This document shows positions 4,342-63,932 of a DNA stretch of 64,000 nucleotides, one piece after another (within the stretch, counting starts at the first letter, position 1; every line of letters begins with the position of its first letter). Origin of the DNA: Candidatus Poriferihabitaceae bacterium. Its GTDB lineage: Bacteria > Pseudomonadota > Gammaproteobacteria > Arenicellales > Poriferihabitantaceae. The notes under the pieces were generated by a model. That model searched no databases. It was not told the origin of the DNA and worked only from the letters and a program-made list of their open reading frames with translations. The position numbers were made by a program, and so were the translations under genes. Location: NCBI GenBank assembly GCA_965262585.1, contig OZ253546.1:1277202-1341201 (forward strand). The letters are read 5' to 3'.

Positions 4342-5256
4342 ATGGCAACCAAAGAATACTCCTTTTATCCGGGCTGCTCATCCGAGCGCAAATCATCGGC
4401 ATCCAATTACATGGTGTCGGTCAACAGCATGTGCAAGACTCTCGACATCAAACTCAACGAGATACCCGATTGGAATTGCTGCGGCGCATCCATCGGCTAC
4501 GCCGACGGCGGCGAACTGCCGCGCCATGTGATGAACGCGCGCAATATCGCCCTGTCGCAACAGCACAACAAAGGGCAAGACATAGTCGCCACCTGCGCGG
4601 CGTGCTGGCTGGGCGCCAAGGAATCGGTCGAGCGCCTGTCCAAATCCGAGCAACTGCTGGCGGACACCCAAAACATCCTCGCCGATGTCGGATTGAAAGT
4701 GGACATCGACGAAAAAACCGCCAGCGGCGTACGCCACATGGTCGAAGTGTTGATTGAAGATTTCGGTTACGACGCGCTCGCCGCGCCGGTAACCAAACCC
4801 CTCGAAGGAATCAAAATCGCCGGCTATGTCGGCTGCCAGACCAACCGCCCGTTCGGCATAGACGGCGAGTCGTTCGAGAATCCCAAATACCTCGATAAAA
4901 TGGTCGAAACCATGGGCGCCGAAGCGGCGGATAAATACGAACAAAAAGTCACCTGCTGCGGCGGCGCGCTGGCCTTCTCCGAGCCGGAAAAAAGCCAAGC
5001 ACAAATCAAAGACATCGTCGAATCCGCCTACGACCACAACGCCGACATGATCGTAACCCCCTGCCCGGTATGCCAGATGAACGTCGAGGTCTACCAAGAC
5101 AACATCAACAAAACCTACGGCACCAAATTCGATATGCCGGTGGTTTATTACAGCCAGTTAATGACCGTCGCCTACGGCGGCACCGCCAAACAAGCCGGCC
5201 TGGACGGACAGGTAATCCGCACCAAGAAGTTGGAAGAGATTGCGGCGAAGAAGTAG
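4342..5256 (+). CDS. hdrB: Heterodisulfide reductase subunit B-like CCG-domain protein
   Basis: YPGCS, WNCCGA, CAACW, YVGCQ, TCCGG and TPCPVCQ CCG motifs. Confidence 0.9.
   Translation: MATKEYSFYPGCSSERKSSASNYMVSVNSMCKTLDIKLNEIPDWNCCGASIGYADGGELPRHVMNARNIALSQQHNKGQDIVATCAACWLGAKESVERLSKSEQLLADTQNILADVGLKVDIDEKTASGVRHMVEVLIEDFGYDALAAPVTKPLEGIKIAGYVGCQTNRPFGIDGESFENPKYLDKMVETMGAEAADKYEQKVTCCGGALAFSEPEKSQAQIKDIVESAYDHNADMIVTPCPVCQMNVEVYQDNINKTYGTKFDMPVVYYSQLMTVAYGGTAKQAGLDGQVIRTKKLEEIAAKK
5195..5256 (+). repeat. Copy 1 of a 62-bp direct repeat (3' end of hdrB including the stop codon)
   Basis: 57/62 identical to 5561-5622 by manual alignment. Confidence 0.9.
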
Positions 5257-5341
5257 TGAGTATCTTGTGGGGTGAGAGCGCAGAAGTAGCCGCTTTTGTG
5301 TATAATTCCGTCAACAAATCGCCGAGTGGATTGAGAGGGAT

Positions 5342-5545
5342 ATGATGAGAACGAAGAATGAATATACGGCCGTCATAAAACGAGAGGGAGACTGGTATGT
5401 CGGCTGGATTGAAGAGGTGCCGGGAGTGAATTGTCAGGAAAAAGATGTGCGCACCCTTAAACAAACACTAAAAATTACCCTGAAGGAAGCCCTGGAATTT
5501 AATCGCCAAGATGCCGTGGCGGCGGCGGGTGAAGATTTCCATTAA
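5342..5545 (+). CDS. HicB-family antitoxin, short; no intact hicA partner
   Basis: YTAVIKREGDWYVGWIEEVPGVNCQ...LKEALEFNR is the HicB-like N-terminal fold; RBS GAGAGGG; TATAAT at 5301-5306. Confidence 0.75.
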   Translation: MMRTKNEYTAVIKREGDWYVGWIEEVPGVNCQEKDVRTLKQTLKITLKEALEFNRQDAVAAAGEDFH

Positions 5546-5560
5546 ACGTTCGGCAGTTCC

Positions 5561-5622
5561 CCGGCTTGGACGGGCAGGTAATTCGCACCAGGAAGTTGGA
5601 GGAGATTGCGGCGAAGAAGTAG
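5561..5622 (+). repeat. Copy 2 of the 62-bp direct repeat (duplicate hdrB 3' end)
   Basis: ccggcttggacgggcaggtaattcgcaccaggaagttggaggagattgcggcgaagaagtag versus the hdrB end; 5 transitions. Confidence 0.9.
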
Positions 5623-5724
5623 GTCGACGGCGTTTCGTTGCCCGGCAAGATTATTCCAACCCGCCATTCCCGGTGGCCAATACGAACATTACGCCGGCCA
5701 ACAACTACCTGGCCTTACGAAGCC

Positions 5725-10481: not shown

Positions 10482-11885
10482 GTGACCGACCTTTATAAAT
10501 TATCCGCCTGCGAAGTGGTGGCACAACTTCAATCCGGCGTCATCACCGCGCACGACGCTCTCGACAGCATCGAAAAGCGGATTCGGTCGGTTGATTCTAA
10601 AATAAACGCCTTGCCAATACGCTGTTTCGAGCGCGCGCGGGAAAATGCCGATGCACTACCCGGCTCTGCCTCGCAACAACGCGCCTTGCAACAGCATGGG
10701 ATGTTGCATGGGCTTCCCGTCACCATCAAGGATTTGTTGCCGGTCGCAAACGTGCGAACGACTTTCGGTTCGCGCATCTATGAACACCACATTCCCGATC
10801 AATCCGACCCGCTGGTTACGCAAATAGAAAAACGCGGCGGAATAATTTATGCCAAATCCAACACCCCCGAATTTGGCACCGGCGGCATTACTTTTAACGA
10901 CCTATTCGGCGCAACCCGCAACCCCCACAACACGAGTTTGGCATCTGGCGGCTCCTCCGGCGGTGCCGCCGCATCGCTTGCCGCCGGTTGCGCGTGGTTA
11001 TCCCACGGATCGGATATGGCCGGTTCCCTGCGCACGCCCGCAAGTTTTTGCGGGGTCGCCAGCCTGCGGCCGTCGCCGAATAAAATTCACGCCGCTTCGG
11101 AATTTCTGCCCTGGGATATTCTCAGCGCTGAAGGCCCCATGGCGCGAAACATCGAAGACCTCGGATTGTTTGCCGACACCATGTTCAACAACTCCGCCGA
11201 ATCCATGTTGCAAGCGGCGCGCCATCCGATAGCACCGCAACGCATCGCCGTCAGCCGAGATTTAGGCGTTGCCACCGTCAACGATCAGGTCGCCGATAAT
11301 TTTCAGAAACTGGTTGACCGACTCGCCGGGGAGAACTGGAATGTCGTTGAAAGTCATCCCGATTTATATGGCGCGCATGAATGCTTTGATGTTCTGCGGG
11401 CGCAATCCTACGCCATCAACCTCGAACAAACCCTCGCCGACCATCCCGATGTTATGAAACCGGAAGTGGTCTGGAATATCCGCGCCGGGCTTGCCCTCAC
11501 CGCCGAAAAAATTCGCCGGGCGATCCGCACCCACGGGCGGATCATCAATCGCTCTGCAAACTATATGCGGGATGTGGACTTGTTGATCTGCCCGGCAACC
11601 AGCGTGGCTTCGGTTGCGGCGGAATTGCGATACCCCGGATCCGACGGAGAAACCCCCATCCCGGAATACTACCGCTGGCTGGCCATCGCATACGCCACCA
11701 CCCTCACCGCCCTGCCAATCATCACCCTGCCTTGTGGCCTCACAGACACCGGCCTACCCGCAGGCATTCAATTAATCGGCAAACCCGGCGGCGAATACCA
11801 ACTTTTTCAACACGCCCGCATGATCGAACGAATCATCGGTTGGGATAGCGAACCCGTTGATCTGGTTGTTGACAAAGCAGGATAA
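10482..11885 (+). CDS. Amidase signature family protein
   Basis: LHGLPVTIKD, KSNTPEFG, GGSSGG, GSDMAGSLRTPA; start uncertain. Confidence 0.85.
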   Translation: MTDLYKLSACEVVAQLQSGVITAHDALDSIEKRIRSVDSKINALPIRCFERARENADALPGSASQQRALQQHGMLHGLPVTIKDLLPVANVRTTFGSRIYEHHIPDQSDPLVTQIEKRGGIIYAKSNTPEFGTGGITFNDLFGATRNPHNTSLASGGSSGGAAASLAAGCAWLSHGSDMAGSLRTPASFCGVASLRPSPNKIHAASEFLPWDILSAEGPMARNIEDLGLFADTMFNNSAESMLQAARHPIAPQRIAVSRDLGVATVNDQVADNFQKLVDRLAGENWNVVESHPDLYGAHECFDVLRAQSYAINLEQTLADHPDVMKPEVVWNIRAGLALTAEKIRRAIRTHGRIINRSANYMRDVDLLICPATSVASVAAELRYPGSDGETPIPEYYRWLAIAYATTLTALPIITLPCGLTDTGLPAGIQLIGKPGGEYQLFQHARMIERIIGWDSEPVDLVVDKAG

Positions 11886-11931
11886 CAATCGACGGGTTAC
11901 AATCGCGCTCGATTACATCGCCCTCCCCCCC

Positions 11932-12942
11932 ATGACCAACCAAACCAATCACCAAAAACCCGCCTATCTTTTTCCCGGGCAGGGTGCGCAGTATTCCGGT
12001 ATCGGCGGGGATTTGTATGCGCAACTTTCCGTGGTTCGGGATACTTACGCTGAGGCGAGCGATGCGTTGGGTTATGACATCGCTGATTTGTCCTTTAATG
12101 CGCCCGCCGAAAAGATCAACCTGACGCGGTATACCCAGCCGGTGTTGTTGACCCACTCCATCGCCTGCCTGCGCGCTTTCAATGAGCGAACCGGGCATTC
12201 GCTGCAGCCGGCCATGGCGGCCGGGCACAGTCTCGGCGAGTATGGCGCGCTGGTCAGTGCCGGTGCGCTTTCTTTTGAACTGGCGTTGCAACTGGTGAAG
12301 CGGCGCGGCGAATTGATGGGGGAATTTGGCCGTGGCGAAATGGAGGCGCTGATGGTCGACTTCGAATCGGCTTGCGAACTGGCCGGGCGACATCATTGCG
12401 AAATCGCCGCTTGCAATCTGCCGGAACAGACCGTGGTGGGCGGCAAGGCGGCGGATCTCGATGCGTTAATCCTCGACCTAGCCACAAGGTTTCCCAAAAA
12501 GCGCAGCGCCCGCCTGAAAACCGAAGGGGCGTTTCATACTTATTACATGGTCGATGCGGCGATGAAATTCCGCGAAACCCTGGAGCAAGCGGCATTCAAT
12601 GCACCGCGCTTTCCGGTGCTATCGAATTTCACCGGCGGCTTTCACAGCACCGGCCATGACGCCGACCTCGCCGCCGACCTCGATGCCCTCAAGTCGCGCC
12701 TGTTCCTGCAGTTGTTCAACCCGGTTCTGTGGCATCAAAACCTGCTGCAAGTCGACGCCGCCGGCGCGGATTTATTGATCGAATTCGGCGGCGGCTTGGG
12801 CCGGGGGGAAACACCGGCATCCAAACGCCCCAATCTGGAAGGCATGGTGAAAAAAACCTGGCGGGATGCAGACCAACGACCAGAATATTTGGCCGTAATC
12901 AATTCGAAAACACTGGAAGAGTCCGCGCTTGCGATTGTTTGA
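11932..12942 (+). CDS. Malonyl-CoA:ACP transacylase (FabD-like), standalone
   Basis: LFPGQGAQ, TQP, AGHSLGEY, GAFHT. Confidence 0.85.
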   Translation: MTNQTNHQKPAYLFPGQGAQYSGIGGDLYAQLSVVRDTYAEASDALGYDIADLSFNAPAEKINLTRYTQPVLLTHSIACLRAFNERTGHSLQPAMAAGHSLGEYGALVSAGALSFELALQLVKRRGELMGEFGRGEMEALMVDFESACELAGRHHCEIAACNLPEQTVVGGKAADLDALILDLATRFPKKRSARLKTEGAFHTYYMVDAAMKFRETLEQAAFNAPRFPVLSNFTGGFHSTGHDADLAADLDALKSRLFLQLFNPVLWHQNLLQVDAAGADLLIEFGGGLGRGETPASKRPNLEGMVKKTWRDADQRPEYLAVINSKTLEESALAIV

Positions 12943-14184: not shown

Positions 14185-15315
14185 ATGCTGAGCTCCCCGA
14201 CTTTTTCCATCGGCATCGAAGAAGAATATATGCTGGTGAACCCCCACAGCGGCGATTTGGTGCGCAAGGTGCCGCGCTCGCTGATGCCTGCGATGAAGCG
14301 CAAACTGGGCAACACCGTATCGCCGGAATTTTTGCAATCTCAAGTGGAGGTAGGCACGCCGGTATGCAAATCAGTGGGCGAGGCGAGTCGGCAACTGGCG
14401 CATCTTCGGGCGACCGTGGCGGAGGTTGCAGCCCAGCACGACATGGCCGTCATCGCCGCCTCGACCCATCCGTTTGCCGACGCCCACGATCAACATATCA
14501 CCAACCGGGCGCGTTATGCGGCGCTGGCCGAAGACCTGCAGGGAGTGGTGCGCCGCTTGTTGATCAGCGGCATGCACGTCCATGTGGGCATTGACGATGA
14601 CGACTTGCGCATCGATTTGATGAATCAGGCCAGTTACATCCTGCCGCACCTTCTGGCACTCAGCACCTCTTCGCCGTTCTGGCACGGCAACGATACCGGG
14701 CTCAAGTCCTACCGCATATCGGTGTGGGGGGAAATGCCGCGCACCGGCCTGCCCCACGTCTTCGACACCTTCTCGGATTTCCAGCGCCATGTCGATGTGC
14801 TGGTCGACGCCGGTGTCATCGAAGACGCCACCAAGATCTGGTGGGATATGCGCCCGAGTGCCCGCTATCCCACCCTGGAAATGCGCATCGCCGATTCGTG
14901 CACCACGCTCAAAGACGCGGCTTGCGTGGCGGCGTTGTTTCAGTGCTGGCTGCGGCTGCTGCACCGGCTACGGCTTTCCAACCAACGCTGGCGTCAATAC
15001 TCCACCTGGCTGCTAGAGGAAAACCGCTGGCGCGCACACCGCTACGGCATCGACGGCGGGCTAATTGATTTTGGCCGCGGCTCCATCGTGCCGTATGCCG
15101 ATTTACTCAATGAAATTCTTGACCTCATCAAAGAAGACGCCGAAGCACTCGACTGCGTCGCCGAAGTCAAACACGCACGCACCATCATTCGCCGAGGAAC
15201 CAGCGCCCACCGCCAGTTAAAAGTGTATTACCGCGCCATCGAACAAGGCCATTCCAAACAGGCGGCGTTGGCCAAAGTGGTGCGCTGGTTGTGTAAGGAA
15301 ACCTTGCGGGTGTGA
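14185..15315 (+). CDS. Carboxylate-amine ligase, YbdK/GCS2 family
   Basis: IGIEEEY, GMHVHVG, ALSTSSPFW, WWDMRPS..YPTLEMR. Confidence 0.88.
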   Translation: MLSSPTFSIGIEEEYMLVNPHSGDLVRKVPRSLMPAMKRKLGNTVSPEFLQSQVEVGTPVCKSVGEASRQLAHLRATVAEVAAQHDMAVIAASTHPFADAHDQHITNRARYAALAEDLQGVVRRLLISGMHVHVGIDDDDLRIDLMNQASYILPHLLALSTSSPFWHGNDTGLKSYRISVWGEMPRTGLPHVFDTFSDFQRHVDVLVDAGVIEDATKIWWDMRPSARYPTLEMRIADSCTTLKDAACVAALFQCWLRLLHRLRLSNQRWRQYSTWLLEENRWRAHRYGIDGGLIDFGRGSIVPYADLLNEILDLIKEDAEALDCVAEVKHARTIIRRGTSAHRQLKVYYRAIEQGHSKQAALAKVVRWLCKETLRV

Positions 15316-15472
15316 GGATTGCGGTTGCGCTAGGCTCCGGCGGCGAAGCCGTCGCACAACACAAGCGAATCGTAATCCACCAAAAAACCGCAATCGCCGC
15401 TGTTGTGGAAAATGGTGAAACGAAAGAAATTGTTCTTGTCCATAAACATTAAATTACGCGAGAGAGAAACCG

Positions 15473-15676
15473 ATGACATATACCGACATACAAGCCGAGT
15501 ATTGTAGGCAACACGGCAGAAGCGTTAAAACCTGCTGGATTGCCCATGTAAAACGAGACCACAACGCAACCACACATCAAGCGCACAACCGCATCTCAGG
15601 GGAAGTAATGCATCCATGTCCACCAGAGATTTATCTAAAACTGGAAAAAATCATGAAAGAGGGCGGTGCAATTTGA
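15473..15676 (+). CDS. Small conserved hypothetical protein (TY..IQ...KTCWIAHVK...NR...CP motif)
   Basis: 67-aa AT-rich ORF with a purine-rich upstream RBS, between convergent ybdK and ptsI. Confidence 0.65.
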   Translation: MTYTDIQAEYCRQHGRSVKTCWIAHVKRDHNATTHQAHNRISGEVMHPCPPEIYLKLEKIMKEGGAI

Positions 15677-15707
15677 AGGAAAAGGTAACACTATTTTTTA
15701 CCCTCGG

Positions 15708-17450
15708 CTATTTATTAATCTCCGCCGCCATTTCCCTGATGCGTTCCGGTTCGGCGGTGGTTAGCAACGGGGCTACTTGGGCGGCAAGTCGGCTGGCGTC
15801 GGTTAGGCGGATTTGTTGTTTGACTTCTAGGAGGGAGGCTGGGTCCATGCTGAATTCGCGTAGTCCCAGTCCTAATAGGATGCGGGTGTAGGCTGCATCT
15901 CCGGCCATTTCTCCGCACATGGAAACTGGGATGTTGGCGGATTTTCCGGCGTCTATGATGTTTTTGATTAGGCGCAAGACAGACGGATGCAGTGGGTCGT
16001 AAAGATAGTTCACTTCGTCGTCGATGCGGTCGATGGCGAGGGTGTATTGAATGAGATCGTTGGTGCCGATGGAGAGAAAATCCAGTTTGTGGGCGAATAG
16101 GTCGGCTGCAATCGCCGCCGCCGGTACCTCGATCATGCCGCCGACCGGCACCTCGGGATCAAAGTCATGGCCTTCCTGCTCCAACTCCCGTTTGACCTGA
16201 TCGAGCAGGGCGAATAACTGATTCAACTCATCCATGCTGGAAACCATCGGCACCATGATTCGCACTTGCCCGATGGCCGACACCCGGTAAATCGCTCGCA
16301 ACTGTGGCTTGAATAAGCCGAGGTCGTGCAGGCACAGGCGAATCGCACGGCGTCCCAGTGCCGGATTGGTGGCCATCGCGTCGCTTGCCCGGCCACCGTC
16401 CACCTGCTTGTCGGCGCCGAGGTCTAGAGTGCGGATGGTGACCGGTCGCCGGATTCGCCCGACCACATCGGCATACGCCGCGAATTGCTCTTCCTCATCG
16501 GGCACTCGCCGCCGGTTCATAAACAAAAATTCGGTTCGATACAGCCCTACGCCCTGCGCGTTTCGAGAGATTCCTTCCAACGCCTCGTCGGGTAGTTCGA
16601 TATTCACCAGCAGTGAAATCGTCTGGCCGTCCAGCGTGGTGGCCGAGGCATCCCGCAACGAATCCAGCTCCTGAATGCGCCGCCGAATTTTTTCCCGGCG
16701 GCGTTCATAGGCGGCCAGCGCGGCTTCATCGGGATTCACCAACACCACGCCACGCTTACCGTCAATCACCAGCAAATCGCCGTTGCGCAGGTAGCGGATG
16801 GCGCCGTGCAGGCCGACTATCGCCGGAATGCCCATGCTGCGGGCGAGGATTGCGGTGTGGGATATGGGCCCGCCGAGATTGGTGATGAATGCGCTGATGC
16901 GGTGTCGTTTGAGTTCCACGGCGTCGGCGGGGGTGAGGTCGTTGGCGACGATGATTTCGCCGGCCGCAATATCGAGGACGCCTTCGGGTTGACCGCCCAC
17001 CCCGCTCGATGCCTCCGACAACTCGCCCTGAATGCGTTGGATGACCTGCGCCACATCCGCCGATTTGCCGCTGAGGTAGGGGTCGTGGATGTCCTTGAAA
17101 AATTGATCCAGTTTTCCGGAGTGGCGGTCGAGGGCGGCTTCGGCGTTAATTTTTCGCTTGCGGATGATGCCCGCCGGTTGTTCGAATAACACCGTGTCTT
17201 CCAATATCATCAAGTGAACACCGAGGATCGATACGATTTCTTCAGGCACATCCACGGGCAACTCGTCTCGGATTTTTTCCAACGATGCGCGCGCGCGCTC
17301 CACGGCTTGTTGCAAGCGGGCGACCTCGGCTTCCACCATGCCGTCGTCGATGGAAAATTCGGCAATCTCGCGACCGGCTAGTCGGATGATTCGCGCCGTG
17401 CCGATGGCGATACCGCTACCGCTGCCGCTGGCGTGCAAGGTGAACATCAC
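15708..17450 (-). CDS. ptsI: PTS enzyme I (PEP-protein phosphotransferase)
   Basis: GGPISHTAILAR phospho-His site, GLYRTEFLF, RTLDLGADK, SIGTNDLIQY, CGEMAGD. Confidence 0.93.
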   Translation of the reverse strand: MMFTLHASGSGSGIAIGTARIIRLAGREIAEFSIDDGMVEAEVARLQQAVERARASLEKIRDELPVDVPEEIVSILGVHLMILEDTVLFEQPAGIIRKRKINAEAALDRHSGKLDQFFKDIHDPYLSGKSADVAQVIQRIQGELSEASSGVGGQPEGVLDIAAGEIIVANDLTPADAVELKRHRISAFITNLGGPISHTAILARSMGIPAIVGLHGAIRYLRNGDLLVIDGKRGVVLVNPDEAALAAYERRREKIRRRIQELDSLRDASATTLDGQTISLLVNIELPDEALEGISRNAQGVGLYRTEFLFMNRRRVPDEEEQFAAYADVVGRIRRPVTIRTLDLGADKQVDGGRASDAMATNPALGRRAIRLCLHDLGLFKPQLRAIYRVSAIGQVRIMVPMVSSMDELNQLFALLDQVKRELEQEGHDFDPEVPVGGMIEVPAAAIAADLFAHKLDFLSIGTNDLIQYTLAIDRIDDEVNYLYDPLHPSVLRLIKNIIDAGKSANIPVSMCGEMAGDAAYTRILLGLGLREFSMDPASLLEVKQQIRLTDASRLAAQVAPLLTTAEPERIREMAAEINK

Positions 17451-22475: not shown

Positions 22476-22731
22476 AGGAGCGGCTACGCCACTAGCCGTC
22501 ATTCCTGAAGGAGCGGCTATCGCCAGCCGCCGCATTCCCGAACGATAGAAAAATAAGGAGCGCCAGCCGCCGTCATTCTCGAACGATAGAAAAATAGGGA
22601 GCGCCAGCGACCATATTTTTCATCGTATCGGGAATCCAGAAGGCCAATAATGAGTCGGCTATCGCCGGCATGTTGTACTGGATTCCAGTTGCGCGAGAAT
22701 GACGGCGGTTCATCGTATCGGGAATCCAGAA
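22476..22731. repeat. Cluster of dRS3/RPE-like palindromic repeats (GTCATTCCCG...CGGGAATCCAG) including long-loop variants
   Basis: gtcattctcgaacgatagaaaaatagggagcgccagcgaccatatttttcatcgtatcgggaatccag plus partial copies; also at 25.3-25.6 kb and 48.6-49.1 kb. Confidence 0.85.
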
Positions 22732-22749
22732 AACTAAATTTAGAACTTA

Positions 22750-25338: not shown

Positions 25339-25617
25339 AGGAGCGGCTTACGCCGGACATGTTTTTACTGGATTCCCGCTGTCGCGGAAATAACGGCGTA
25401 GGGAGTCGGCTGTCGCCGGCATGTTGTACTGGATTCCCGTGTCCCCCAACTCGTCATTCCTGCTGTCGCAGGAATAACGAGTTGGGGGCACGAGAATGAC
25501 GGCGGTACGTCGTCATTCCCGAACGATAGAAAAATAGGGAGCGCCAGCGACCATATTTTTCATCGTATCGGGAATCCAGAAGGCTAATAATGAGTCGGCT
25601 GTCGCAGGAATGACGGG
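25339..25617. repeat. Composite nested palindromic repeat cluster
   Basis: Nested ATTCCCGTGTCCCCCAACTCG[tcattcctgctgtcgcaggaataa]CGAGTTGGGGGCACGAGAAT plus a long-loop unit; near reverse complement of 48741-48974. Confidence 0.88.
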
Positions 25618-25629
25618 CCTGGGCCGTCG

Positions 25630-31660: not shown

Positions 31661-31663
31661 TAT

Positions 31664-39410: not shown

Positions 39411-39436
39411 TGGAGATTGCCAGCGAGAGGAGTCTC

Positions 39437-47507: not shown

Positions 47508-48593
47508 ATGAACCATATCAAGCATCCCCAACTCGCCACCGAAAAAAAGCCCCCCGGCGTCTTCGACCGCCACGGCCGGGCCCTGCACGACCTGCGGGTG
47601 TCGGTCACCGACCGCTGCAATTTTCGTTGCGAGTATTGCATGCCCAAGGATGTGTTCGGGCGCAACTACCGATTTTTGCCGAAAGAGCGGTTGTTGCGCT
47701 ACGAAGAAATCGAAACGCTGGTGCGCGCTTTTGTCCGCCTCGGCGTCCACAAAGTCCGCCTGACCGGCGGCGAGCCGCTACTGCGAAACGACCTCGAAGA
47801 CTTGATCGCAAGGCTGTCGCGGATTGAAAACCTCGACGATCTGGCCATCACCACCAACGCCTCGCTACTCAGCGAATCACGCGCCGCCGCGCTGCGAGAC
47901 GCCGGTATTCGCCGGGTGAACATCAGCCTCGACGCCCTCGACGAACCAATCTACCGCAGCATCAACCGCATCCAATCCCCCCTCAAGAACATCCTCCGAG
48001 GCATCGACCACGCCCTCGGTGCGGGCTTCGCTTCGGTCAAAATCAACATGGTGGTGCAAAAAGACATAAACGTCGGCGAGATCATTCCGATGGCGAAGTA
48101 TTTCCGTGGAAGCGGGGCGATTTTGCGTTTCATTGAATTTATGGATGTCGGAAACCACAACCAATGGTCGCTGGAGCGCGTGTTCACCGCCCGGGAAATC
48201 ATCGACCACATCGATCCCGTGTATCCCCTGCAACCGCTGGACGCGAATTACCACGGCGAAGTCGCAAAACGCTGGCGCTACGCCGACGGCGAGGGCGAAA
48301 TCGGCGTCATCTCCTCCATCAGCCAACCCTTCTGCGGCGGTTGCGCCCGCGCCCGCCTGTCCGCAGTGGGCGAACTCTACACCTGCCTATTCGCCACCAC
48401 CGGCGTCGACCTTCGAAAATTGCTGAGAAGCGGCGTCGGCGAACAAGACCTTGCCGAACAAATAGCCACCTTGTGGCAAAACCGGCGAGATCAATACTCC
48501 ATGGAAAGAGCATCCGGGCAATCGCTAAAAATCAATGGGCCCGACCACCAAAAAGCCGCGCAAAAAGTGGAAATGTCTTATATTGGTGGGTGA
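47508..48593 (+). CDS. moaA: GTP 3',8-cyclase MoaA
   Basis: LRVSVTDRCNFRCEYCMP, LTGGEP, FCGGC.R.RL, MSYIGG. Confidence 0.95.
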   Translation: MNHIKHPQLATEKKPPGVFDRHGRALHDLRVSVTDRCNFRCEYCMPKDVFGRNYRFLPKERLLRYEEIETLVRAFVRLGVHKVRLTGGEPLLRNDLEDLIARLSRIENLDDLAITTNASLLSESRAAALRDAGIRRVNISLDALDEPIYRSINRIQSPLKNILRGIDHALGAGFASVKINMVVQKDINVGEIIPMAKYFRGSGAILRFIEFMDVGNHNQWSLERVFTAREIIDHIDPVYPLQPLDANYHGEVAKRWRYADGEGEIGVISSISQPFCGGCARARLSAVGELYTCLFATTGVDLRKLLRSGVGEQDLAEQIATLWQNRRDQYSMERASGQSLKINGPDHQKAAQKVEMSYIGG

Positions 48594-48600: not shown

Positions 48601-49075
48601 TAAGGAGCGGCTGGCGCCGACATGTTTTTTACTGGATTCCCGATACGATGAAAAATATAGTCGCTGGCGCTCCCTATTTTTCTATCGTTCGGGAATGACG
48701 ACTTGGGGGACACGGGAATCCAGTAAAACATGCCGGCGATAGCCGACTCCTTATTAGCCTTCTGGATTCCCGATACGATGAAAAATATGGTCGCTGGCGC
48801 TCCCTATTTTTCTATCGTTCGGGAATGACGACGCGCCGCCGTCATTCTCGTGCCCCCAAGTCGTTATTCACGCGACAGCGGGGATGACGACTTGGGGGAC
48901 ACGGGAATCCAGTAAAACATGCCGGCGATAGCCGACTCCTTACGCCGTTATTCTCGCGAAAGCGGGAATCCAGTGTTCGGCGATAGCCGACTCATTATTG
49001 GCCTTCTGGATTCCCGATACGATGAAAAATATAGTCGCTGACGCTCCTTATTTTTCTATCGTTCGGGAATGACGA
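48601..49075. repeat. Largest nested dRS3/RPE-like palindromic cluster (three long-loop units plus nested units)
   Basis: ctggattcccgatacgatgaaaaatat.gtcgctg.cgctcc.tatttttctatcgttcgggaatgac three times; nested cccccaagtcg...cgacttggggg unit. Confidence 0.9.
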
Positions 49076-49102
49076 GTTTTGATATTCCTCGTTTGTCGCT
49101 GT

Positions 49103-49129
49103 GGACAGGCACGGGGGCGCTGTCCCTAC
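49103..49129 (-). repeat. GTAG-type REP
   Basis: ggacaggcacgggggcgctgtccctac. Confidence 0.65.
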
Positions 49130-49232
49130 AAGGGAATGACGAATTCGGTGTGGGGGGTGGTTTGGCGGGGGGTGGGAGTCCCTGCAGAGGCGCGGGGGCC
49201 TCTGCAGGTTCTCGGTGTACCCCGTTCTGGTT

Positions 49233-52145: not shown

Positions 52146-53209
52146 TTCAACGACACTCGTCTTCATTCCCGCGCAGGCGGGAATCCAGTAAAACAAACTC
52201 GGCGCAAGCCGCTCCTTCATCCATCATCCTATGGCTATCGCTATGTTGCCTGCTGATATTTGCTCTGGTGGTTCTTGGCGGTGCAGTGCGCCTTACCGGT
52301 TCCGGGCTTTCCATGGTCGACTGGCGGCCCCTCGGCGGCATCCTTCCGCCTCTCAATAAAATAGAGTGGCTTCAAGCCTTCGAAAGTTATCGGCAATTCC
52401 CCGAGTTTCAACTCGTCAACCCCGACATGACCCTCGCCGGGTTTCGCTTCATATTCTGGATGGAATACGCCCACCGCCTGCTCGGGCGCGTAGTCGGCAT
52501 GGTATTCCTGCTGCCGTTTTTGTTTTTTCTGTGGCGCGGGATGTTGCCCCGGGCGGTGGCCGGCGGCCTGTGGGGACTGTTTTTTCTCGGCGCATTACAA
52601 GGATTGCTCGGCTGGTATATGGTGCAAAGCGGCCTCGCCGACAACCCCGAAGTCAGCCACTACCGCCTGCTGATGCACTTCATGCTGGCGGTCATCATTT
52701 ATGCCTGTCTGGTAGGCATGGCGGCTAGCCTTCACCGACCCGCCACATCGCCCTCGCCCTCGTCCGCGCCCGCGCACCACACCGGCAAAATCGCCCTGGG
52801 CATGCTGCTATTAATGATGGCAAGCGGTGCGTTGGTGGCCGGTAGCGGCGCCGGCTACGCCTACAACACCTGGCCGAAAATGGGCACGCTATGGATACCC
52901 GAATCACTCCTAGCCCTGCACCCGTGGTGGCTCAATTTTGTCGAAAATCCGCTTGCCATCCAATTCACCCACCGCTGGCTGGCGGTGCTGGTACTCCTCG
53001 CCACCGGCGCATTCGCCCGCCGCCTGATGCGCACCGCCCGCCCCCTCGCCGCCGCCATCCTGCTGACGGCGGTAGCAACCCAATTCGCCCTCGGCATCGC
53101 CACTTTGCTACTGGGCGTCCCCGCCGCCCTCGGCATCGCCCACCAAGCCGGAGCGATGATTTTGCTGACCGTGATAGTGTTCAACCTCGCTATCTTGCCA
53201 CCCCGATAA
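52142..53209 (+). CDS. ctaA: Heme A synthase (COX15/CtaA) with a palindromic-repeat-derived N-terminal peptide
   Basis: [38 protein letters not shown]; ATGA overlap with fabB. Confidence 0.9.
52160..52216. repeat. dRS3/RPE-like element inside the ctaA 5' coding region
   Basis: ttcattcccgcgcaggcgggaatccagtaaaacaaactcggcgcaagccgctcc encodes [18 protein letters not shown]. Confidence 0.85.
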
Positions 53210-57280: not shown

Positions 57281-58423
57281 TTATACCGTTAGGATTTTAA
57301 TTTTTGTGGCGATTAATGCGGCGGTGGTTAGCATCAGGGCTGAGATCATTACCAACGCTTGCCAGCCAAGGCCGAGGTAGACATAGCCCGATAGCCACGA
57401 GCCGAGGGCGCCGCTGGAATAATAAATGGATACATATAATCCGTTGACTACGCCTTTGTGTTCGGTTGCGAGTTCGTTGGCGAGGCCGAATAGTGCGGCG
57501 TGGATGAAAAACATTCCGGCGGCGAATATGAACATCGTTGCGAATAACACGGTGGCGTCGGGCACGATGTAGAGCGTTAGGCCGATGGCGTTCACGCCGA
57601 GACCGAGGAGCAAGGCGCGATTGACGGAACCGCAGGCGCGCACGATTTGAGATGAAAAGACCGCGGCGGGAATGCCGACCAGATAGCCGGTATACAACAG
57701 CGAGGCGTGCAGCGATCCGCTCGATGGGGCGATTTCTGCGAGTCGGAATGGCAGTAGGTTGAGCATCCCGGAGAACACGATGAAAGCGCAGGACAACACC
57801 AGATAACTGTTGCGGTATAGCGGGGTGGCGAGCACTCGTTTGATGCTGCGCACATCGAGGCGTTGAAAATCGATTTCGGCATCGGCGTCGAGGTGGCGCA
57901 ACATCACCCACGCCGGTAGCAATAGCAATCCCATGAGCACGAACATCCACTGCCAGTTGAGCCAGTGGGTGAGCAAACCGCCGAGCAAGCGGCTGGTGAA
58001 ACCGCCGAAGATGGTCGCGCCGATATACCAGCCCATGATGCGCCGCAGTTTGCCGGGCGGTGCCATAGTGGCGCAATAAGTGGTGAGCGAAGTGAAGATC
58101 GCCGGTAGTAACAAGCCTTGCACAAAGCGCAACGCCAAGAGATGCCAGAATTCGGTCGCCGCGAAAAATGCGAGTTGGTTGATGATTAACAACAACACCG
58201 CCATACGCAACATCGAGCGCGCCGGAATCGCCTGCAAAAAATAGCCGTAGATGATCGGCGCAAGCGCGAGTGGTGCAAGCGTAAACGTAACCAACAACGC
58301 ACTATCGGCGGCGCTCACGCCAAACTCGGCACTCAGCAACGGCAGAATCGGCTGCGGCGTATACAAAGTACAAAACGACAGGAAAGTCGTGCCGAGCGCA
58401 ATCAGCAGGTTTTTGTCATTCAT
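57281..58423 (-). CDS. MFS transporter (YnfM-like)
   Basis: LYTPQPILP, LRFVQG, GLYVSIYY.SG; about 12 TM. Confidence 0.85.
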   Translation of the reverse strand: MNDKNLLIALGTTFLSFCTLYTPQPILPLLSAEFGVSAADSALLVTFTLAPLALAPIIYGYFLQAIPARSMLRMAVLLLIINQLAFFAATEFWHLLALRFVQGLLLPAIFTSLTTYCATMAPPGKLRRIMGWYIGATIFGGFTSRLLGGLLTHWLNWQWMFVLMGLLLLPAWVMLRHLDADAEIDFQRLDVRSIKRVLATPLYRNSYLVLSCAFIVFSGMLNLLPFRLAEIAPSSGSLHASLLYTGYLVGIPAAVFSSQIVRACGSVNRALLLGLGVNAIGLTLYIVPDATVLFATMFIFAAGMFFIHAALFGLANELATEHKGVVNGLYVSIYYSSGALGSWLSGYVYLGLGWQALVMISALMLTTAALIATKIKILTV

Positions 58424-58554
58424 CCGGCGGTCGGCGTGGGAATGTGCGGGGGGGATTATAGGGTAAGTTTGGGATGGGGGGGTTGCGGTTGCGCTAGGCG
58501 CGGGGGGTGCGCGTGACGCGCAATGCGGGGGGTTTGTGCCGGTTCTTAGTAATG

Positions 58555-58644
58555 AACGGCTACGCCGCACATTTTTTTACTGGATTCCAGTTGCGCGGGA
58601 ATGACGGGGTTATGTTTTTCGTAGGGACAGGTGCCTGTCCCTAC
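58555..58644. repeat. Composite dRS3-like + GTAG palindrome
   Basis: ctggattccagttgcgcgggaatgacggggttatgtttttc-GTAGGGACAGGTGCCTGTCCCTAC. Confidence 0.8.
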
Positions 58645-58657
58645 GAGGTTGGGCGTG

Positions 58658-59984: not shown

Positions 59985-60035
59985 TCCGGCTACGCCGGGA
60001 TTGTTTTCCTGGATTCCAGTTGCGCGGGAATGACG
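59985..60035. repeat. dRS3-like palindrome with satellite hairpin
   Basis: tccggctacgccgggattgttttcctggattccagttgcgcgggaatgac. Confidence 0.8.
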
Positions 60036-60548
60036 ATGGGTGGAGGGAATACAAACGATGCGACTTGGTATGATGCGATTTGCAACCGGGCGGGAGGATA
60101 GCGGTTTTTGAAAATTAATCAAGGAGTGTCTGTGGCTTTGAATTCAACCTTAGAAGTGCAACAAGGGATTTATGCCGAATAGTCCTGATTCGGTGTTTTC
60201 ATGCCAAGGCATTTACGCGACCGGTTGTTAATTTGGTTGACCACCTGTGCCAGTTGCGAGGTTCTGATGATCGCAAAATCATAGTTTTGGAAAAAATATT
60301 GCCGTATCAGCCTGTTGGTATTCTCATTCATGGGCTGCTTGTGTGCCCCTACTGGCGCCTAACTGCGGGCTCCGGCAGGGGCGCATCGCCATATTGATTG
60401 GCGAAAATCAAGAGGCTACCGCATCCCACCTTTCCGTCATCGGTGAAGTTGCACTTATGAATTGAATTCAACAAATATGCGCATGAGGGGGCGATTCGGG
60501 GTATAATTGCGCCGATTTTTAACCAGGTTATTGAAGAGGCGATTTAGA

Positions 60549-60835: not shown

Positions 60836-62458
60836 TCACCTAATTCGGATTAACGACTGCCGATAGTCTTTTGGGGCATGGTATCCCAGCAGGTTGAACA
60901 CCGTTGCGGCGACGTTGGCGAGGCCCGGGTTGTCAACTTCGGCCATTTCGTAAGCGCGGTCGGCACTGGGATCCACAATCGCAAAGGGCACCGGATTCAA
61001 ACTGTGGGCGGTGCGCACAATCCGCTGGCCGTCTTTTTCCACGAACATCTCATCGGCATTGCCGTGATCCGCGGTTACCAGCACTACGCCCCGGCATTCC
61101 GACACCACTTCAATCAGGCGGCCAATGCACTGGTCCACCACTTCCATGGCGCGCACGGTGGCTTTGATATTGCCGCTGTGGCCGACCATGTCGCCGTTGG
61201 CGAAGTTGATGCGCCCGAAGCGGTATTCCTCGGAGCGGACTAATTCGATGGTGGCATCGGTTATCTCTTTTGCTTTCATCGCCGGTGCACGGCTGAAGTC
61301 GATGTTGTCCGAGGGAATTTCTATCCAGGTTTCGAGGTCTTCATCGAAGCGCCCCGAGCGGTTGCCGTTCCAGAAATAGGTTACATGTCCGAATTTCTGG
61401 GTTTCGCTGACGGCAAAAGTTTTTACTTTTTCGGCGCATAAAAATTCGACCATAGTGCGGTCGATGACCGGCGGGGCGACCAGATAATGCCGAGGCACAT
61501 TGAGGTCGCCGTCGTATTGCAGCATGCCGCAGAAAAACAATTCCGGCATGTCGCCGCGCTCGAAGGCGTCGAAGGACTCGTCTTCCAGCGCGCGGGAAAT
61601 CTCGATAGCGCGGTCGCCGCGAAAATTGAATAACACCACCGCGTCCCCGTCTCGCATGGCACCGACCGGGTTTCCATCGCCATCCGCAATCACGAACGCT
61701 TCGAGAAACTGATCGTTGACATCGGCGTCGGCTTCATACTGGCGCTGAATTTCTTGCGCGGCGTTGTCGGCGGTGCGGCCAATTCCATGAACATGCGCGT
61801 CGAATCCTTTTTTCACCATCGGCCAGTCGGCCTGATAGCGATCCATGGTGATCGCCATGCGCCCGCCGCCGGAGGCGATTCGGTAGTGAAAGCCGTCGCC
61901 GCGGTTAATGGCCGCCAACTCGGTTTCGAGTCGTTCCAAATAGACCAGGGCGGAACGCGGCGCGACATCCCGGCCGTCGAGCAGGGCGTGGATGCAGACC
62001 GATTGAATCCCCGAACGGTGGCAGCGTTTGAGTAGCCCGAGCAGGTGGCCGATGTGGGAGTGCACGTTGCCGTCTGACAGCAGGCCGAGGAAATGCACGG
62101 TATGGCCGCCTTTGCCACGGGATTCCACTTCGCCCCAGGCGTCGCCGTCAAAAATCGAGCCGTTGTCGAGGGCCTGCTTGACTAATTTCGCGCCCTGGTC
62201 GAAGACGCGGCCACCGCCCAGAGTGTTGTGTCCCACTTCGCTGTTGCCCATCTCCCGGTCGTCGGTGAGGCCGACGTGGGTGCCGTGGGCGTGCAGTTTG
62301 GTGTGGTAGTCCGAGGCCATGAGTTTGTCCAACACCGGGGTATGTGCCAGCGACACGGCATTGGCCGGCCCCGCCGCCGCCAACCCGACGCCGTCCATGA
62401 CAATCAGCAGCAACGGGCCGGCACGCCCTCGGAAGGTGGTTAGTTTTTTAAGGTGCAT
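60836..62458 (-). CDS. gpmI: 2,3-BPG-independent phosphoglycerate mutase
   Basis: MGNSEVGH, SDGNVHSH, LDGRD, NFRGDRA, ETQKFGHVTYF, NGDMVGH, TADHGNA. Confidence 0.95.
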   Translation of the reverse strand: MHLKKLTTFRGRAGPLLLIVMDGVGLAAAGPANAVSLAHTPVLDKLMASDYHTKLHAHGTHVGLTDDREMGNSEVGHNTLGGGRVFDQGAKLVKQALDNGSIFDGDAWGEVESRGKGGHTVHFLGLLSDGNVHSHIGHLLGLLKRCHRSGIQSVCIHALLDGRDVAPRSALVYLERLETELAAINRGDGFHYRIASGGGRMAITMDRYQADWPMVKKGFDAHVHGIGRTADNAAQEIQRQYEADADVNDQFLEAFVIADGDGNPVGAMRDGDAVVLFNFRGDRAIEISRALEDESFDAFERGDMPELFFCGMLQYDGDLNVPRHYLVAPPVIDRTMVEFLCAEKVKTFAVSETQKFGHVTYFWNGNRSGRFDEDLETWIEIPSDNIDFSRAPAMKAKEITDATIELVRSEEYRFGRINFANGDMVGHSGNIKATVRAMEVVDQCIGRLIEVVSECRGVVLVTADHGNADEMFVEKDGQRIVRTAHSLNPVPFAIVDPSADRAYEMAEVDNPGLANVAATVFNLLGYHAPKDYRQSLIRIR

Positions 62459-62511
62459 GTTTCAAGGTGCATGTGAGATGAGGAGGCGGTACTACCGATG
62501 AATTATAACCG

Positions 62512-63099
62512 TTACAGCAACATCCGCAGTTGTTGCAACGCCTGGCCACGATGGCTCAAGCGATTCTTCAGCGCCGGCTCCAGTTGCGCCGAGGTTTGGC
62601 CGAGGGCGTCGATAAAAAACACCGAGTCGTAGCCAAATCCGTTGTCCCCCACCGGCGCATCGGCAATCCGCCCTTCCCATGCACCGACGCTGATGAGCGG
62701 TGACGGGTCGGCGGCATCGCGCATGAACACCAACACGCAGCGAAAGCGCGCGGTTCGGGCGGCGGGGTTCACCGCTTCGAGATTTTTCAGCAGTTTGCGA
62801 ATGTTGTCGGCGGCGGACGCATTTTCGCCTGCGTAGCGGGCCGAACGGATGCCGGGCGCGCCTCCCAGCGCGTCTACTTCCAGCCCCGAATCATCGGCGA
62901 TGGCGGCGAGGCCGGTATGCATGCAGGCGTGGCGGGCTTTGAGCAGGGCGTTGTCGATGAAAGTGAGGCCGGACTCGACCACCTCGTCAAAACCAAACTC
63001 CGATTGCGGGACAATTTCCCAGCCACACGGCGCGAGCAGCGCGCCGAGTTCGGTTAGTTTTCCGGGGTTGCCGGTGGCCGCGACTACGCGCTTATTCAA
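62512..63099 (-). CDS. rdgB: dITP/XTP pyrophosphatase RdgB
   Basis: ATGNPGK, ADDSGL.V.ALGGAPG..SARY, GFGYD, KN..SHRG. Confidence 0.95.
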
Positions 63100-63838
63100 C
63101 GCCGACGCCGGGCGCTTCGCCGATGCCCAATGCCTCCCGCTGGGCGCTTAAAATCTGCTTGATGCCGGCCGTCGCCTGGTCGAGCATTCGCGTCAGGGTG
63201 TCGCGGTCGAAGGGCTTGGCTTCGGCGGTTCCCTGAATTTCAATCAGCCCGCCGTGCTCGTCCATGACCACATTCAGGTCGGTGTCGGCGCGCTTGTCCT
63301 CGGTGTAGTCGAGATCGGTGATGACGCGGTTTCCCAGCACCCCCACGGAAACCGCGGCGATCGCACGCCGCACCGGGGTTGCCTCGATCAACTCCTGATG
63401 AAGCAGCCAGCCCACCGCATCCACCAACGCCACATAAGCACCGGAAACCGCCGCGGTGCGGGTGCCGCCGTCGGCTTGAATGACATCGCAATCCAGCACG
63501 ATGCTACGCTCGCCAAGCGCGGGCAGATCGAGAGCGGCGCGCAGGGAACGGCCAATCAGCCGCTGGATCTCCAGAGTGCGCCCATCCTGCCGCCCACGGG
63601 CCGCCTCGCGACTGTTGCGGGTAGTAGTGGAGCGCGGCAGCATGCTGTATTCCGCAGTCACCCAGCCGCTTTTTTTATTACGCAAAAACGGCGGAACCCG
63701 CTCCTCGATGCTGGCGTTGCACAACACCCGCGTATCGCCGAGACTAATCAACACCGACCCTTCGGCGTGTTTAGTGTAATGCCGAATAATGGATACCGGC
63801 CGCAGTTCATCATCCTGTCGGCTATTTGTGCGAGACAT
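63092..63838 (-). CDS. rph: Ribonuclease PH
   Basis: [44 protein letters not shown]. Confidence 0.96.
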
Positions 63839-63932
63839 GGGTAAATCCGGAAGTGGAGGAGTGTTTGATTATATTGAAAAACCGACCCGCCCCGCAAATA
63901 CAAATGCGAAAACCGTGCGAACCGGCGAGGGA

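Follow-up and report, generated by a model that had tools for sequence, protein, structure and literature searches.

Polar A/C-to-G/T composition zones at silent codon positions around gene ends and hairpin-repeat clusters in a Poriferihabitaceae genome

Composition flips in the window

The window, that is, the whole stretch of 64,000 nucleotides analyzed, comprises positions 1,277,202–1,341,201 of the single 2.60-Mb contig (OZ253546.1) of a Candidatus Poriferihabitaceae bacterium, with 56% G+C. It contains, among others, HdrB-like, FabD-like, ptsI, hemE, gltB, ctaD, ctaG and moaA genes and several intergenic clusters of hairpin repeats, and at many points near gene ends its + strand turns abruptly from A/C-rich to G/T-rich. 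Base composition was expressed as keto skew, defined as (G+T-A-C)/length. Genes were called with our own codon-usage caller, which gave 1,839 genes covering 85.5% of the genome; these calls are home-made and take the start of the longest open reading frame (ORF). Gene identities were taken from family scans, which agree with the eight names given above (434 bits for hemE), although the HdrB-like gene scores below the curated cut-offs.

An earlier note, made by eye, had named eleven points at which the + strand flips from A/C to G/T. The right-minus-left difference in keto skew was positive at all eleven (+0.19 to +0.58, with 200 bp on each side). A change-point caller comparing 150 bp on each side, with a difference of at least 0.45 (counts were also made at 0.5, 0.55 and 0.6), recovered eight of the eleven, missing 5225, 15260 and 37490, and found in the window 16 A/C-to-G/T and 7 G/T-to-A/C flips. 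With third codon positions alone, strong contrasts were obtained at all nine points with more than ten such positions of called genes per side (for instance 5225, 25270 and 31680), and the skew was measurable on one side at the other two (15740, right; 48570, left). The features concerned are listed below, with third-position or flank skews given as left/right.

5025..5425, + strand: flip close to the 3′ end of the HdrB-like gene (4342-5256); all-base difference +0.38; third positions -0.55/+0.30
5195..5256, + strand: terminal 62 nt of the HdrB-like gene, taken as the reference copy in a direct duplication (family D1)
5561..5622, + strand: non-coding duplicate of the 62 nt, 366 bp downstream; 5/5 differences C>T or A>G
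11765..12165, + strand: flip at the start of the FabD-like gene (true start about 11935); all-base +0.35; change-point 11960; third positions -0.32/+0.36
15060..15460, + strand: flip at the 3′ end of a carboxylate-amine ligase gene (14101-15315); all-base +0.22; third positions -0.52/+0.44
15540..15940, - strand: flip at the 3′ end of ptsI (15708-17450, minus); change-point 15694, D=0.56; right third positions +0.70 (+ strand)
22477..22779, no strand: hairpin-repeat cluster with dRS3-like cores, an exception to the polarity; left +0.08, right -0.15
24900..25293, - strand: 5′ halo of hemE, with G/T-rich third positions on the coding strand; change-point 25270, D=0.67; third positions -0.85/+0.48 (+ strand)
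25339..25623, no strand: hairpin-repeat cluster, with the hemE start to its left and the 3′ end of the gene at 25630-27081 to its right; flanks -0.78/+0.55
31480..31880, - strand: flip at the 3′ end of a PA0111-family gene and the gltB start; change-point 31690; third positions -0.23/+0.76; no repeat within 3 kb
35670..36070, - strand: flip between the ctaG start (35815) and the ctaD 3′ end (35947); change-point 35868, D=0.60; third positions 0.0/+0.45
37290..37690, - strand: weak flip at the ctaD start; all-base +0.19, no change-point called; third positions -0.01/+0.57
39286..39709, no strand: hairpin-repeat cluster; flanks -0.20/+0.33
40710..41110, - strand: flip at the 5′ end of the heme o synthase gene (40006-41034); change-point 40874; third positions -0.19/+0.32
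42125..42187, no strand: small dRS3-type repeat cluster; left third positions -0.60, right with too few coding sites
48300..48567, + strand: 3′ halo of moaA (47508-48593); change-point 48567; left third positions -0.55
48601..49145, no strand: hairpin-repeat cluster beginning 8 nt past the moaA stop; left flank -0.60
52163..52214, no strand: small dRS3-type repeat cluster; left third positions -0.55, right with too few coding sites
58205..58423, - strand: 5′ halo of a major facilitator superfamily (MFS) transporter gene (57281-58423); change-point 58405, D=0.65; third positions -0.52/+0.42
58481..58648, no strand: hairpin-repeat cluster, with the MFS gene start to its left and the 3′ end of the gene at 58658-59962 to its right; flanks -0.45/+0.55
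59987..60037, no strand: small dRS3-type repeat cluster of atypical polarity; left third positions +0.45, right with too few coding sites

The flips had been placed some tens of bp inside the genes. This is so at 3′ ends, where the skew stops 10–15 codons before the stop codon; at 5′ ends it results in part from start codons having been set too far upstream (hemE starts at 25293 and the MFS gene at 58423). In moaA the last 9 codons switch to G/T-ending codons: the tail TCT TAT ATT GGT GGG contrasts with TCC/TCG, TAC/TAT, ATC, GGC and GGC in the three relatives with the gene end recovered, among nine loci tried.

An artefact of assembly, polishing or gene calling has next to no probability as an explanation. 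In its favour it can be said that the gene calls are home-made, with longest-ORF starts; the all-base flips, however, are independent of gene calls, and the same pipeline found nothing in three comparison genomes (G002, G013 and G017) or in Escherichia coli. Moreover, the contig pieces from run X4 listed for 15000-34999 carry no letter different from the window, the ptsI halo included (X4 contigs are identical to the window over 15722-16652); these are eight listed pieces out of more than 5,000 from four runs, and X4 may be the source sample of the window, its contigs being a separate assembly. This letter-for-letter equality across several halos rules out the polishing artefact, which the earlier note had given as a possible refutation. 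In the halo comparison, sample X6 differs from the window at scattered single-nucleotide polymorphisms (SNPs) only. X6 represents a second strain of the same organism, with SNPs that are mostly transitions (e.g., at 16404-16566) and a 12-nt deletion at 18620.

Frequency and position of the flips in the genome

Over the whole genome, A/C-to-G/T flips outnumbered the reverse ones by 214 to 118 at a difference of 0.5, and by 70 to 20 at 0.6. As a control, the synonymous codons inside each gene were permuted in 12 shuffles, which yielded 82.2 ± 5.0 A/C-to-G/T flips (highest 93) against the 214 real ones, so that the excess over codon-preserving shuffles is confirmed. Flips within 100 bp of a gene end numbered 135, versus 47.2 ± 3.5 in the shuffles, and between 5000 and 63900 of the window there were 6 flips at a difference of 0.6, versus 1.3 ± 0.7. 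The alleged proximity to gene ends was likewise borne out: 59% of 406 A/C-to-G/T flips at the 0.45 threshold and 64% of 118 at 0.55 lay within 100 bp of a gene end, compared to 33% of 264 and 27% of 45 reverse flips, respectively, and to 21% of 20,000 random positions. The flips are thus real, and stronger than can be seen by eye. Along the 2.6-Mb contig, neither the GC skew nor the keto skew showed a clear replication origin or terminus signal.

An A/C-to-G/T flip reads identically on both strands. From this it follows that A/C-to-G/T flips and reverse flips are truly different objects, and that any gradient within genes from a G/T-rich 5′ end to an A/C-rich 3′ end automatically yields the independence from gene direction that had been noticed by eye and that appeared also in the + strand profiles centred on repeat clusters, described below.

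Skew profile along genes and transcription units

Such a gradient was found at four-fold degenerate sites, as expected from the earlier location of the pattern at synonymous positions; first and second codon positions were nearly flat. In about 1,000 genes of at least 300 codons, the keto skew of the coding strand was +0.06 at codons 20–40, about -0.1 in mid-gene and -0.20/-0.22 at 20–60 codons before the stop, with a rebound to -0.055 in the last 20 codons; medians matched means. At 40–50 codons before the stop, four-fold sites rose to 0.496 C and fell to 0.286 G. Each gene is therefore a saw-tooth, G/T-rich at its 5′ side and A/C-rich at its 3′ side, which produces an A/C-to-G/T step at boundaries in every arrangement of gene directions.

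The gradient depends on transcription units, which were inferred solely from gene spacing. The 3′ dip was nearly absent (-0.11 to -0.13) in 325 operon-internal genes, with a co-directional neighbour at most 40 bp downstream, and reached -0.27 to -0.31 in 156 co-directional genes followed by a gap of at least 150 bp and in 270 convergent genes. Along the units the zones are local, extending up to about 450 nt before the unit end and up to about 300 nt after the unit start. Counting all bases, unit ends contained 0.30–0.32 C versus 0.245–0.26 G.

Some side observations concern the extremes of the genes. The 60 nt around start codons are A/C-rich genome-wide (-0.07 to -0.10). On the minus strand, the leaders of hemE (25294-25338) and of the MFS gene (58424-58480) are A/C-rich, with C-runs and a TATAAT box upstream, and no clear Shine-Dalgarno sequence was seen in either. 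The last 10–20 codons of unit-terminal genes are G/T-rich at four-fold sites (+0.09 to +0.22) in the comparison genomes G002, G004, G006 and G011, the terminal-codon skew of G011 beside repeats being +0.47; in the genome under study (G000) only the last 10 codons are positive (+0.04). G/T-rich terminal codons look like a genus-wide trait.

Hairpin-repeat clusters and the polarity of their flanks

The core words of the intergenic repeats occur in 270–675 copies in G000. As single-stranded DNA, the segment 48600-48745 forms a long hairpin (-40.7 kcal/mol, z = -8.6); a second repeat stretch tested in the same way gave no fold (z = +0.56). The claim that the pattern is strongest next to repeat clusters was upheld. 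In 91 unit-end genes that have a repeat core at most 250 nt downstream, the four-fold skew was -0.55, -0.54, -0.45 and -0.44 over codons 20–100 before the stop, compared to a mean of -0.23 in 335 unit-end genes without such core. Unit-start genes with a repeat upstream (n = 67) gave +0.15 to +0.22, and those without (n = 389) about +0.03. Other high-copy repeats behaved like the core words.

Two rival explanations of the zones start from these clusters. One is a strand-asymmetric DNA process originating at them, such as nicking with strand displacement, repair synthesis after excision of an element, or outward transcription. The strand running 5′→3′ away from the cluster would be exposed or resynthesized, losing C and A and gaining G and T, which is the general form of the deamination-halo idea of the earlier note. 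The other is reverse causality: mobile hairpin elements would insert or persist at boundaries already polarised, i.e., in strongly terminated, transcriptionally quiet gaps, and the repeats would mark the zones.

Profiles centred on 154 clusters, for third positions on the + strand, bear on the first of them. The keto skews of the flanking genes were:

Left flank, 3′ end of a + gene facing the cluster (n=72): -0.55; baseline -0.07
Left flank, 5′ end of a - gene facing the cluster (n=61): -0.28; baseline +0.07
Right flank, 5′ end of a + gene facing the cluster (n=52): +0.27; baseline -0.07
Right flank, 3′ end of a - gene facing the cluster (n=84): +0.54; baseline +0.07

The shift is similar whether 3′ or 5′ gene ends face the cluster, and the order A/C-rich, cluster, G/T-rich on the + strand is found in 108 of the 117 clusters with coding sequence on both flanks (median right-minus-left difference 0.65); both facts favour a DNA process. 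Within the window, the clusters at 25339-25623, 39286-39709, 48601-49145 and 58481-58648 obey this polarity and that at 22477-22779 breaks it. The repeat copies are about 97% identical, pointing to ongoing turnover, which also speaks for a DNA process.

Also on the same side is the duplicated end of the HdrB-like gene (5195-5256 versus 5561-5622), where all five differences were confirmed as C>T or A>G and so as transitions with the expected polarity; the outgroups G010 and G002 place three of them in the non-coding copy and leave two ambiguous. The duplicates of 62 nt bracket a 304-nt insert (5257-5560), and the whole segment 5195-5622 looks like an insertion with a long target duplication.

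Several properties of the flanks go against a DNA process. The skew peaks at 120–200 nt from the cluster edge and is gone by 400–600 nt, but in the nearest 60 nt it is absent or reversed. The spacer between stop codon and repeat is shorter than 15 nt in 68 of 129 3′-facing genes, and a spacer longer by about 65 nt shifts the 3′ profile by about 5 codons, which means that the profile is anchored mainly to the stop codon and not to the cluster edge. Non-coding flanks, at 60–450 nt, show just -0.06 to -0.08 (they may be young), versus -0.4 to -0.55 at third positions. At 3′-facing flanks the skew did not grow with cluster length (-0.37, -0.40, -0.43, -0.41), a result that is compatible with reverse causality. 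A motif, which the earlier note had proposed to look for, did not appear: in 308 halo flanks (78.5 kb) no word of 5–7 letters was enriched beyond composition. In the cluster region 48400-49900 there were 0 outward sigma-70-like promoters versus 0.9 expected. Concerning enzymes, the genome has no match to the Y1 transposase family PF01797, to which RAYT (repeat-associated tyrosine transposase) proteins belong, and no IS110-type transposase was found in it; the best match to the integron integrase TIGR02249 reached 80 bits versus a cut-off of 265, with matches in two tyrosine-recombinase genes. Finally, if a break in the cluster were resected, it is the other strand that would become single-stranded, and the polarity would be reversed.

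Two further sets of data touch the clusters and flips. In 260 repeat-unit copies 166 polarised substitutions were counted, dominated by unit orientation and shared variants and hence confounded. When eight RNAs of 146 nt centred on flips were folded, none did better than its shuffles (z from -0.67 to +1.25), and the flips are not hairpins.

With regard to reverse causality, just 3 of the 11 claimed points (25270, 48570 and 58405) lie within 100 nt of a hairpin cluster, and 8 of the 11 are more than 600 bp from any repeat of at least 10 copies, with third-position contrasts that are still strong; thus, the repeats intensify the pattern and are not required for it. In the same line, 401 unit ends with no repeat whatever average -0.20, and 93% of the repeat-core bases lie outside called genes. 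However, zones beside repeats are 2–3 times stronger than elsewhere, and the explanation leaves the origin of the zones unaddressed. Zones are lacking in relatives that carry few repeats (see below), so that there is no pool of pre-polarised sites for the elements to choose. Altogether, reverse causality is considered unlikely.

Comparison with other genomes

The same pipeline was applied to the comparison genomes G002, G004, G006, G011, G013 and G017 as 400-kb samples (800 kb of G002 and 400 kb of G004), and to 500 kb of E. coli K-12. The 400-kb samples of G013 and G017, from other families of the same order, showed no gradient. G002, a close relative with few repeats (83% DNA identity in moaA), had no zones. 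In G004, with the same repeat family at lower density, there was a weak 3′ dip (-0.14 to -0.20), and G006, without repeats, gave about -0.1. G011 has its own related repeats and showed a moderate repeat-linked effect, with 5′ ends at +0.08 to +0.22 with repeats versus about 0 without. No gradient was found in the E. coli sample, nor an A/C zone at the 42 3′-facing and 9 5′-facing flanks of its 30 clusters resembling repetitive extragenic palindromes (REP), the 3′-facing flanks being at +0.139 versus +0.098 expected. The zones are, therefore, specific to this lineage. That they track the repeat load, with strong zones in G000, weak to moderate ones in G004 and G011 and none in G002, G013 and G017, agrees with a DNA process.

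Mutation or fixation bias

The four-fold sites of 109 repeat-flanked 3′ zones contained A 0.184, C 0.575, G 0.172 and T 0.069, compared to A 0.105, C 0.428, G 0.338 and T 0.128 in mid-gene. A and C rise, G and T are halved, and the A/C and G/T ratios barely move, so the shift is one of amino versus keto bases. The purine share drops from 0.44 to 0.36, while a process of transitions only would hold it constant. The steadiness of the ratios is as predicted by selection against pairing bases and not by such a process.

Substitutions were analyzed in 325 ortholog pairs between G000 and G002, the latter taken as the halo-free reference; 30 pairs have a 3′ halo and 30 a 5′ halo. The percentages of sites changed from G002 to G000 were:

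G to A: 3′ halo 27.5%, controls 8-15%
G to C: 3′ halo 26.2%, controls 18-20%
C to any other base: 3′ halo 16.6 ± 2.0%, controls 24.2%
C to G: 3′ halo 3.9%, controls 11%
C to T: 3′ halo 3.3%, controls 8%
A to G: 3′ halo 19.6%, controls 36-42%

In the 3′ halos amino-to-keto changes are thus suppressed, C is replaced less often than in the controls, and G>C nearly equals G>A in frequency, all of which disagrees with a deamination-type process of added mutation. A two-branch Markov model, crude and treating sites within a gene that are not independent, was fitted to these data. In 3′ halos a one-parameter fixation bias (S = 2.05) gave a log-likelihood (lnL) of -1349.9, ahead of added mutation with one parameter (-1359.0) and with four parameters (-1356.3) by 9.1 and 6.4 units, respectively. 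In 5′ halos added mutation was marginally ahead (lnL -1688.0 versus -1689.9; 1.9 units), which slightly favours a DNA process. Also in favour of the latter, positions 1 and 2 shift in the same direction (-0.053 versus -0.004), and nonsynonymous keto-to-amino changes exceed the opposite ones, 232 versus 187. Amino-acid identity is slightly lower in halos (0.73 versus 0.76–0.77).

It can be said that the deamination-halo reading of the earlier note stands in its descriptive part. The silent-site flips are real, have one polarity, are strongest beside repeats and show the polarity of origins or nick-displaced strands, and at least 3 of the 5 changes in the hdrB duplicate are on the expected strand. 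The mechanism does not fare so well, considering the frequency of G>C, the suppression of reverse changes, the barely skewed non-coding flanks and the stop-codon anchoring, to which are added the near absence inside operons, the lack of cluster-size dose-response and of a motif, and the eight points distant from repeats. More generally, a DNA-level process is weakened by the substitution spectrum, by reverse-change suppression, by the behaviour of non-coding DNA and by stop anchoring, and we regard it as rather unlikely. In its more specific form, a DNA transaction that is recurrent and strand-asymmetric (nicking and displacement, resynthesis or strand-biased conversion) would take place at the clusters and rewrite, with origin-like polarity, silent sites up to about 500 bp into the genes on both sides; this is doubtful, though possible.

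A fixation bias together with symmetry around clusters would also result from strand-biased gene conversion, in which recombination initiated at repeats would leave heteroduplex of fixed polarity in the flanks and mismatch repair would favour G/T on one strand. Direct evidence of it was lacking, it does not account for the weak non-coding skew or the stop-codon anchoring, and we know of no repair bias that separates amino from keto bases. It is judged quite improbable.

The location of the effect at third positions, its weakness in non-coding DNA and the multiplicative, amino-versus-keto shift would fit as well a choice of codons at the level of translation, with wobble-decoded G/U-ending codons as a slow 5′ ramp and Watson–Crick-decoded A/C-ending codons near the 3′ end. 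However, the loss of G-ending codons is as great in boxes with a C34 tRNA (ratios 0.28, 0.52, 0.58, 0.36) as in those without it (0.36, 0.55, 0.79, 0.50), and for this reason the wobble-decoding hypothesis was rejected. Furthermore, first-position synonymous leucine codons shift (TTA/(TTA+CTA) from 0.58 to 0.19), positions 1 and 2 do so too, the rare codon CTA rises from 0.07 to 0.35, and the effect is nearly absent inside operons. The independence of C34, together with the leucine first-position, position 1 and 2 and nonsynonymous shifts, indicates a pressure on nucleotides and not on decoding, and makes codon choice a very improbable explanation. The number of tRNA genes found in G000 was 42.

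A possible role of Rho-dependent termination

The explanation preferred here, tentatively and with somewhat less than even confidence, is that selection maintains C-rich, G-poor RNA on which the termination factor Rho is loaded before units end and hairpin clusters begin, with protection of the 5′ side. The flips would then be the edges of composition zones set in silent codon positions by fixation bias and not by extra mutation. Over the last 60–400 nt of coding sequence, transcripts nearing a unit end would retain a composition rich in C and poor in G and in pairing bases, most strongly where a cluster of long hairpin repeats abutting the stop codon closes the unit, and the A/C zone would act as a loading site of the rut (Rho utilization) type. 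As the hairpin repeats would leave no unstructured 3′ untranslated RNA, the site would have to be built from synonymous codons. The first 300 nt or so of coding sequence after a unit start would be kept G/U-rich, which may shield young transcripts from premature Rho action. With a gradient from 5′ G/T to 3′ A/C in each gene, any boundary would show A/C followed by G/T whichever strand is read and however the genes are oriented. What the data show is the existence of the zones, the way they depend on repeats and unit ends, the lack of them in relatives and, for 3′ ends, the signature of a fixation bias; we infer that Rho reads the signal and that the 5′ zone arises in the same way.

In favour of this explanation are the near restriction of the 3′ dip to unit ends, its intensity beside repeats, the amino-versus-keto shift, the better fit of fixation bias in 3′ halos, the anchoring to the stop codon and the frequent placing of repeats immediately past it. 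The genome contains a rho gene (TIGR00767, 688.6 bits, above the cut-off). Sites resembling intrinsic terminators follow 84 of 781 unit ends in G000, compared to 21 in shuffled regions. Unit ends with such a site were less A/C-rich than those without it in 6 of the 8 genomes sampled: in G000, -0.133 versus -0.197 without repeats and -0.446 versus -0.526 with repeats; in E. coli, +0.263 versus +0.165; in G011 the gap was just 0.005. This agrees with a modest but general association of C-rich gene tails with Rho-type ends. The terminator-linked gap of 0.06–0.08 in G000 is far too small to explain alone the -0.55 beside repeats. Loss of intrinsic terminators was considered as the difference between lineages and rejected, because such sites are present at 11% of unit ends in G000 and 9% in G002.

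In the literature, rut sites are described as unstructured, C-rich and G-poor over 80–90 nt, at times located over 100 nt before the termination point (PMC6061677), REP arrays as partial Rho-dependent terminators (bioRxiv 10.64898/2026.03.23.713779), and avoidance of Rho as a factor that shapes the nucleotide content of genes (PMC13323073).

Other data weigh against Rho loading as the cause. The 5′ zones need a second assumption, and it is there that added mutation came out marginally ahead. A rut site inside an open reading frame would be covered by ribosomes much of the time. G002 is equally poor in intrinsic-terminator-like sites (25 of 275 unit ends) and yet has no zones, and none were seen at the 51 E. 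coli REP-like flanks. The non-coding flanks, which are free to evolve, are hardly skewed, and strong flips occur also with neither repeat nor intergenic gap, as at 31680. In E. coli the rut signal is reported to be downstream of REPs, not upstream (PMC6061677). The 5′ zones, the exemption of the last 10–15 codons and the weak non-coding skew are explained by none of the models considered.

Other sequence elements in the window

A second palindromic element of lower copy number, about 32 nt long (...GGACAGG...CCTGTCCCTAC-like), occurs near gene ends at 5724-5755, 6750-6781 and about 58612-58650. The 17-nt word TTGCGGTTGCGCTAGGC is common to 15317-15340 and 58481-58500, just outside two gene ends, and is possibly the edge of another repeat family. 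Next to the moaA cluster, a tandem array of about ten 45-nt units (49245-49710), each with a short G+C hairpin followed by a T-run, resembles terminators on the + strand; there were 17 terminator-like sites in 48400-49900 versus 4.3 ± 2.2 in shuffles, and the array is the reason for the A-T skew of -0.51 in 49001-50000. The ORF that overlaps it (49069-49971, 300 aa) had no family match and is probably not a gene. The gene at 53598-54833 encodes a 411-aa protein whose N-terminus weakly matches the model of Neisseria-type PorB porins (E = 9e-11, far below the cut-off), and its low codon score suggests that it may be cargo. Rfam gave 0 matches in the window.

Relation to known systems and significance

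Like the skew at replication origins, the zones present + strand A/C and then G/T around a point; unlike it, they have a scale of a few hundred bp at more than 100 sites, are not limited to transitions and are weak in non-coding DNA. Strand-coordinated mutation clusters beside DNA breaks (kataegis-type), reportedly described by Roberts and colleagues in 2012, share with the zones the loss of C as C>T and C>G on the strand running away from the cluster and the strand switch across a point, but here the polarity is opposite to that of 5′→3′ resection, reverse changes are suppressed, and an evolutionary steady state is seen instead of a burst. The codon-usage gradients along genes that Hooper and Berg are said to have reported in 2000 are similar in that third-position composition varies with position in the gene; the present effect differs in that it is much larger, occurs only at unit ends, is specific to this lineage and is linked to repeats. 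Cores resembling ATTCCC-N8-GGGAAT (10 in 400 kb) in intergenic arrays resemble the dRS3 and intergenic mosaic elements of Neisseria; this is a likeness of pattern, and we know of no effect of dRS3 elements on the composition of their flanks.

With Rho-dependent terminators and their rut sites, as characterised in PMC6061677, the zones share a C-rich, G-poor composition with few pairing bases, a length of at least 80 nt and a position upstream of unit ends, in a genome that encodes rho. They differ from rut sites in lying inside coding sequence, in the synonymous codons of hundreds of genes, and in having a mirror-image G/T zone after starts, and the role of Rho is here a prediction. The repeats are similar to the REP elements and bacterial interspersed mosaic elements (BIME) of E. 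coli, which serve as partial Rho-dependent terminators and mRNA stabilisers, in being multi-copy intergenic hairpin elements at gene 3′ ends, and E. coli REPs have been linked to Rho-dependent 3′ ends (bioRxiv 10.64898/2026.03.23.713779). They differ in that the E. coli flanks have no A/C zone and no RAYT transposase was found in the present genome; also, the C/G signal of E. coli is reported downstream of REPs (PMC6061677), and the zones lie upstream of the clusters. The purine bias due to avoidance of Rho (PMC13323073) is another case of base content of the coding strand constrained by termination, but it is gene-wide and concerns purines versus pyrimidines, while the pattern reported here is positional within genes and separates amino from keto bases.

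A full-text literature search, of limited coverage, found no description of such zones. The composition of silent sites is usually ascribed to mutation bias across the whole genome and to selection at translation; here, a local, polar and lineage-specific factor sets up to 77% of the third positions over at least 50 codons at about 100 gene ends. If the factor is a strand-asymmetric DNA transaction at the clusters, it would be a new kind of repeat-linked, site-directed mutagenesis or conversion, of a sort not described in bacteria. If it is a termination signal, a mobile hairpin element would have forced hundreds of genes to encode Rho-loading sites in their synonymous codons, and the zones would provide a readout of transcription-unit ends from sequence only and a caution for the design of codon-optimised genes. 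Either way, the zones distort measures of synonymous divergence (dS), codon bias and horizontal transfer near gene ends.

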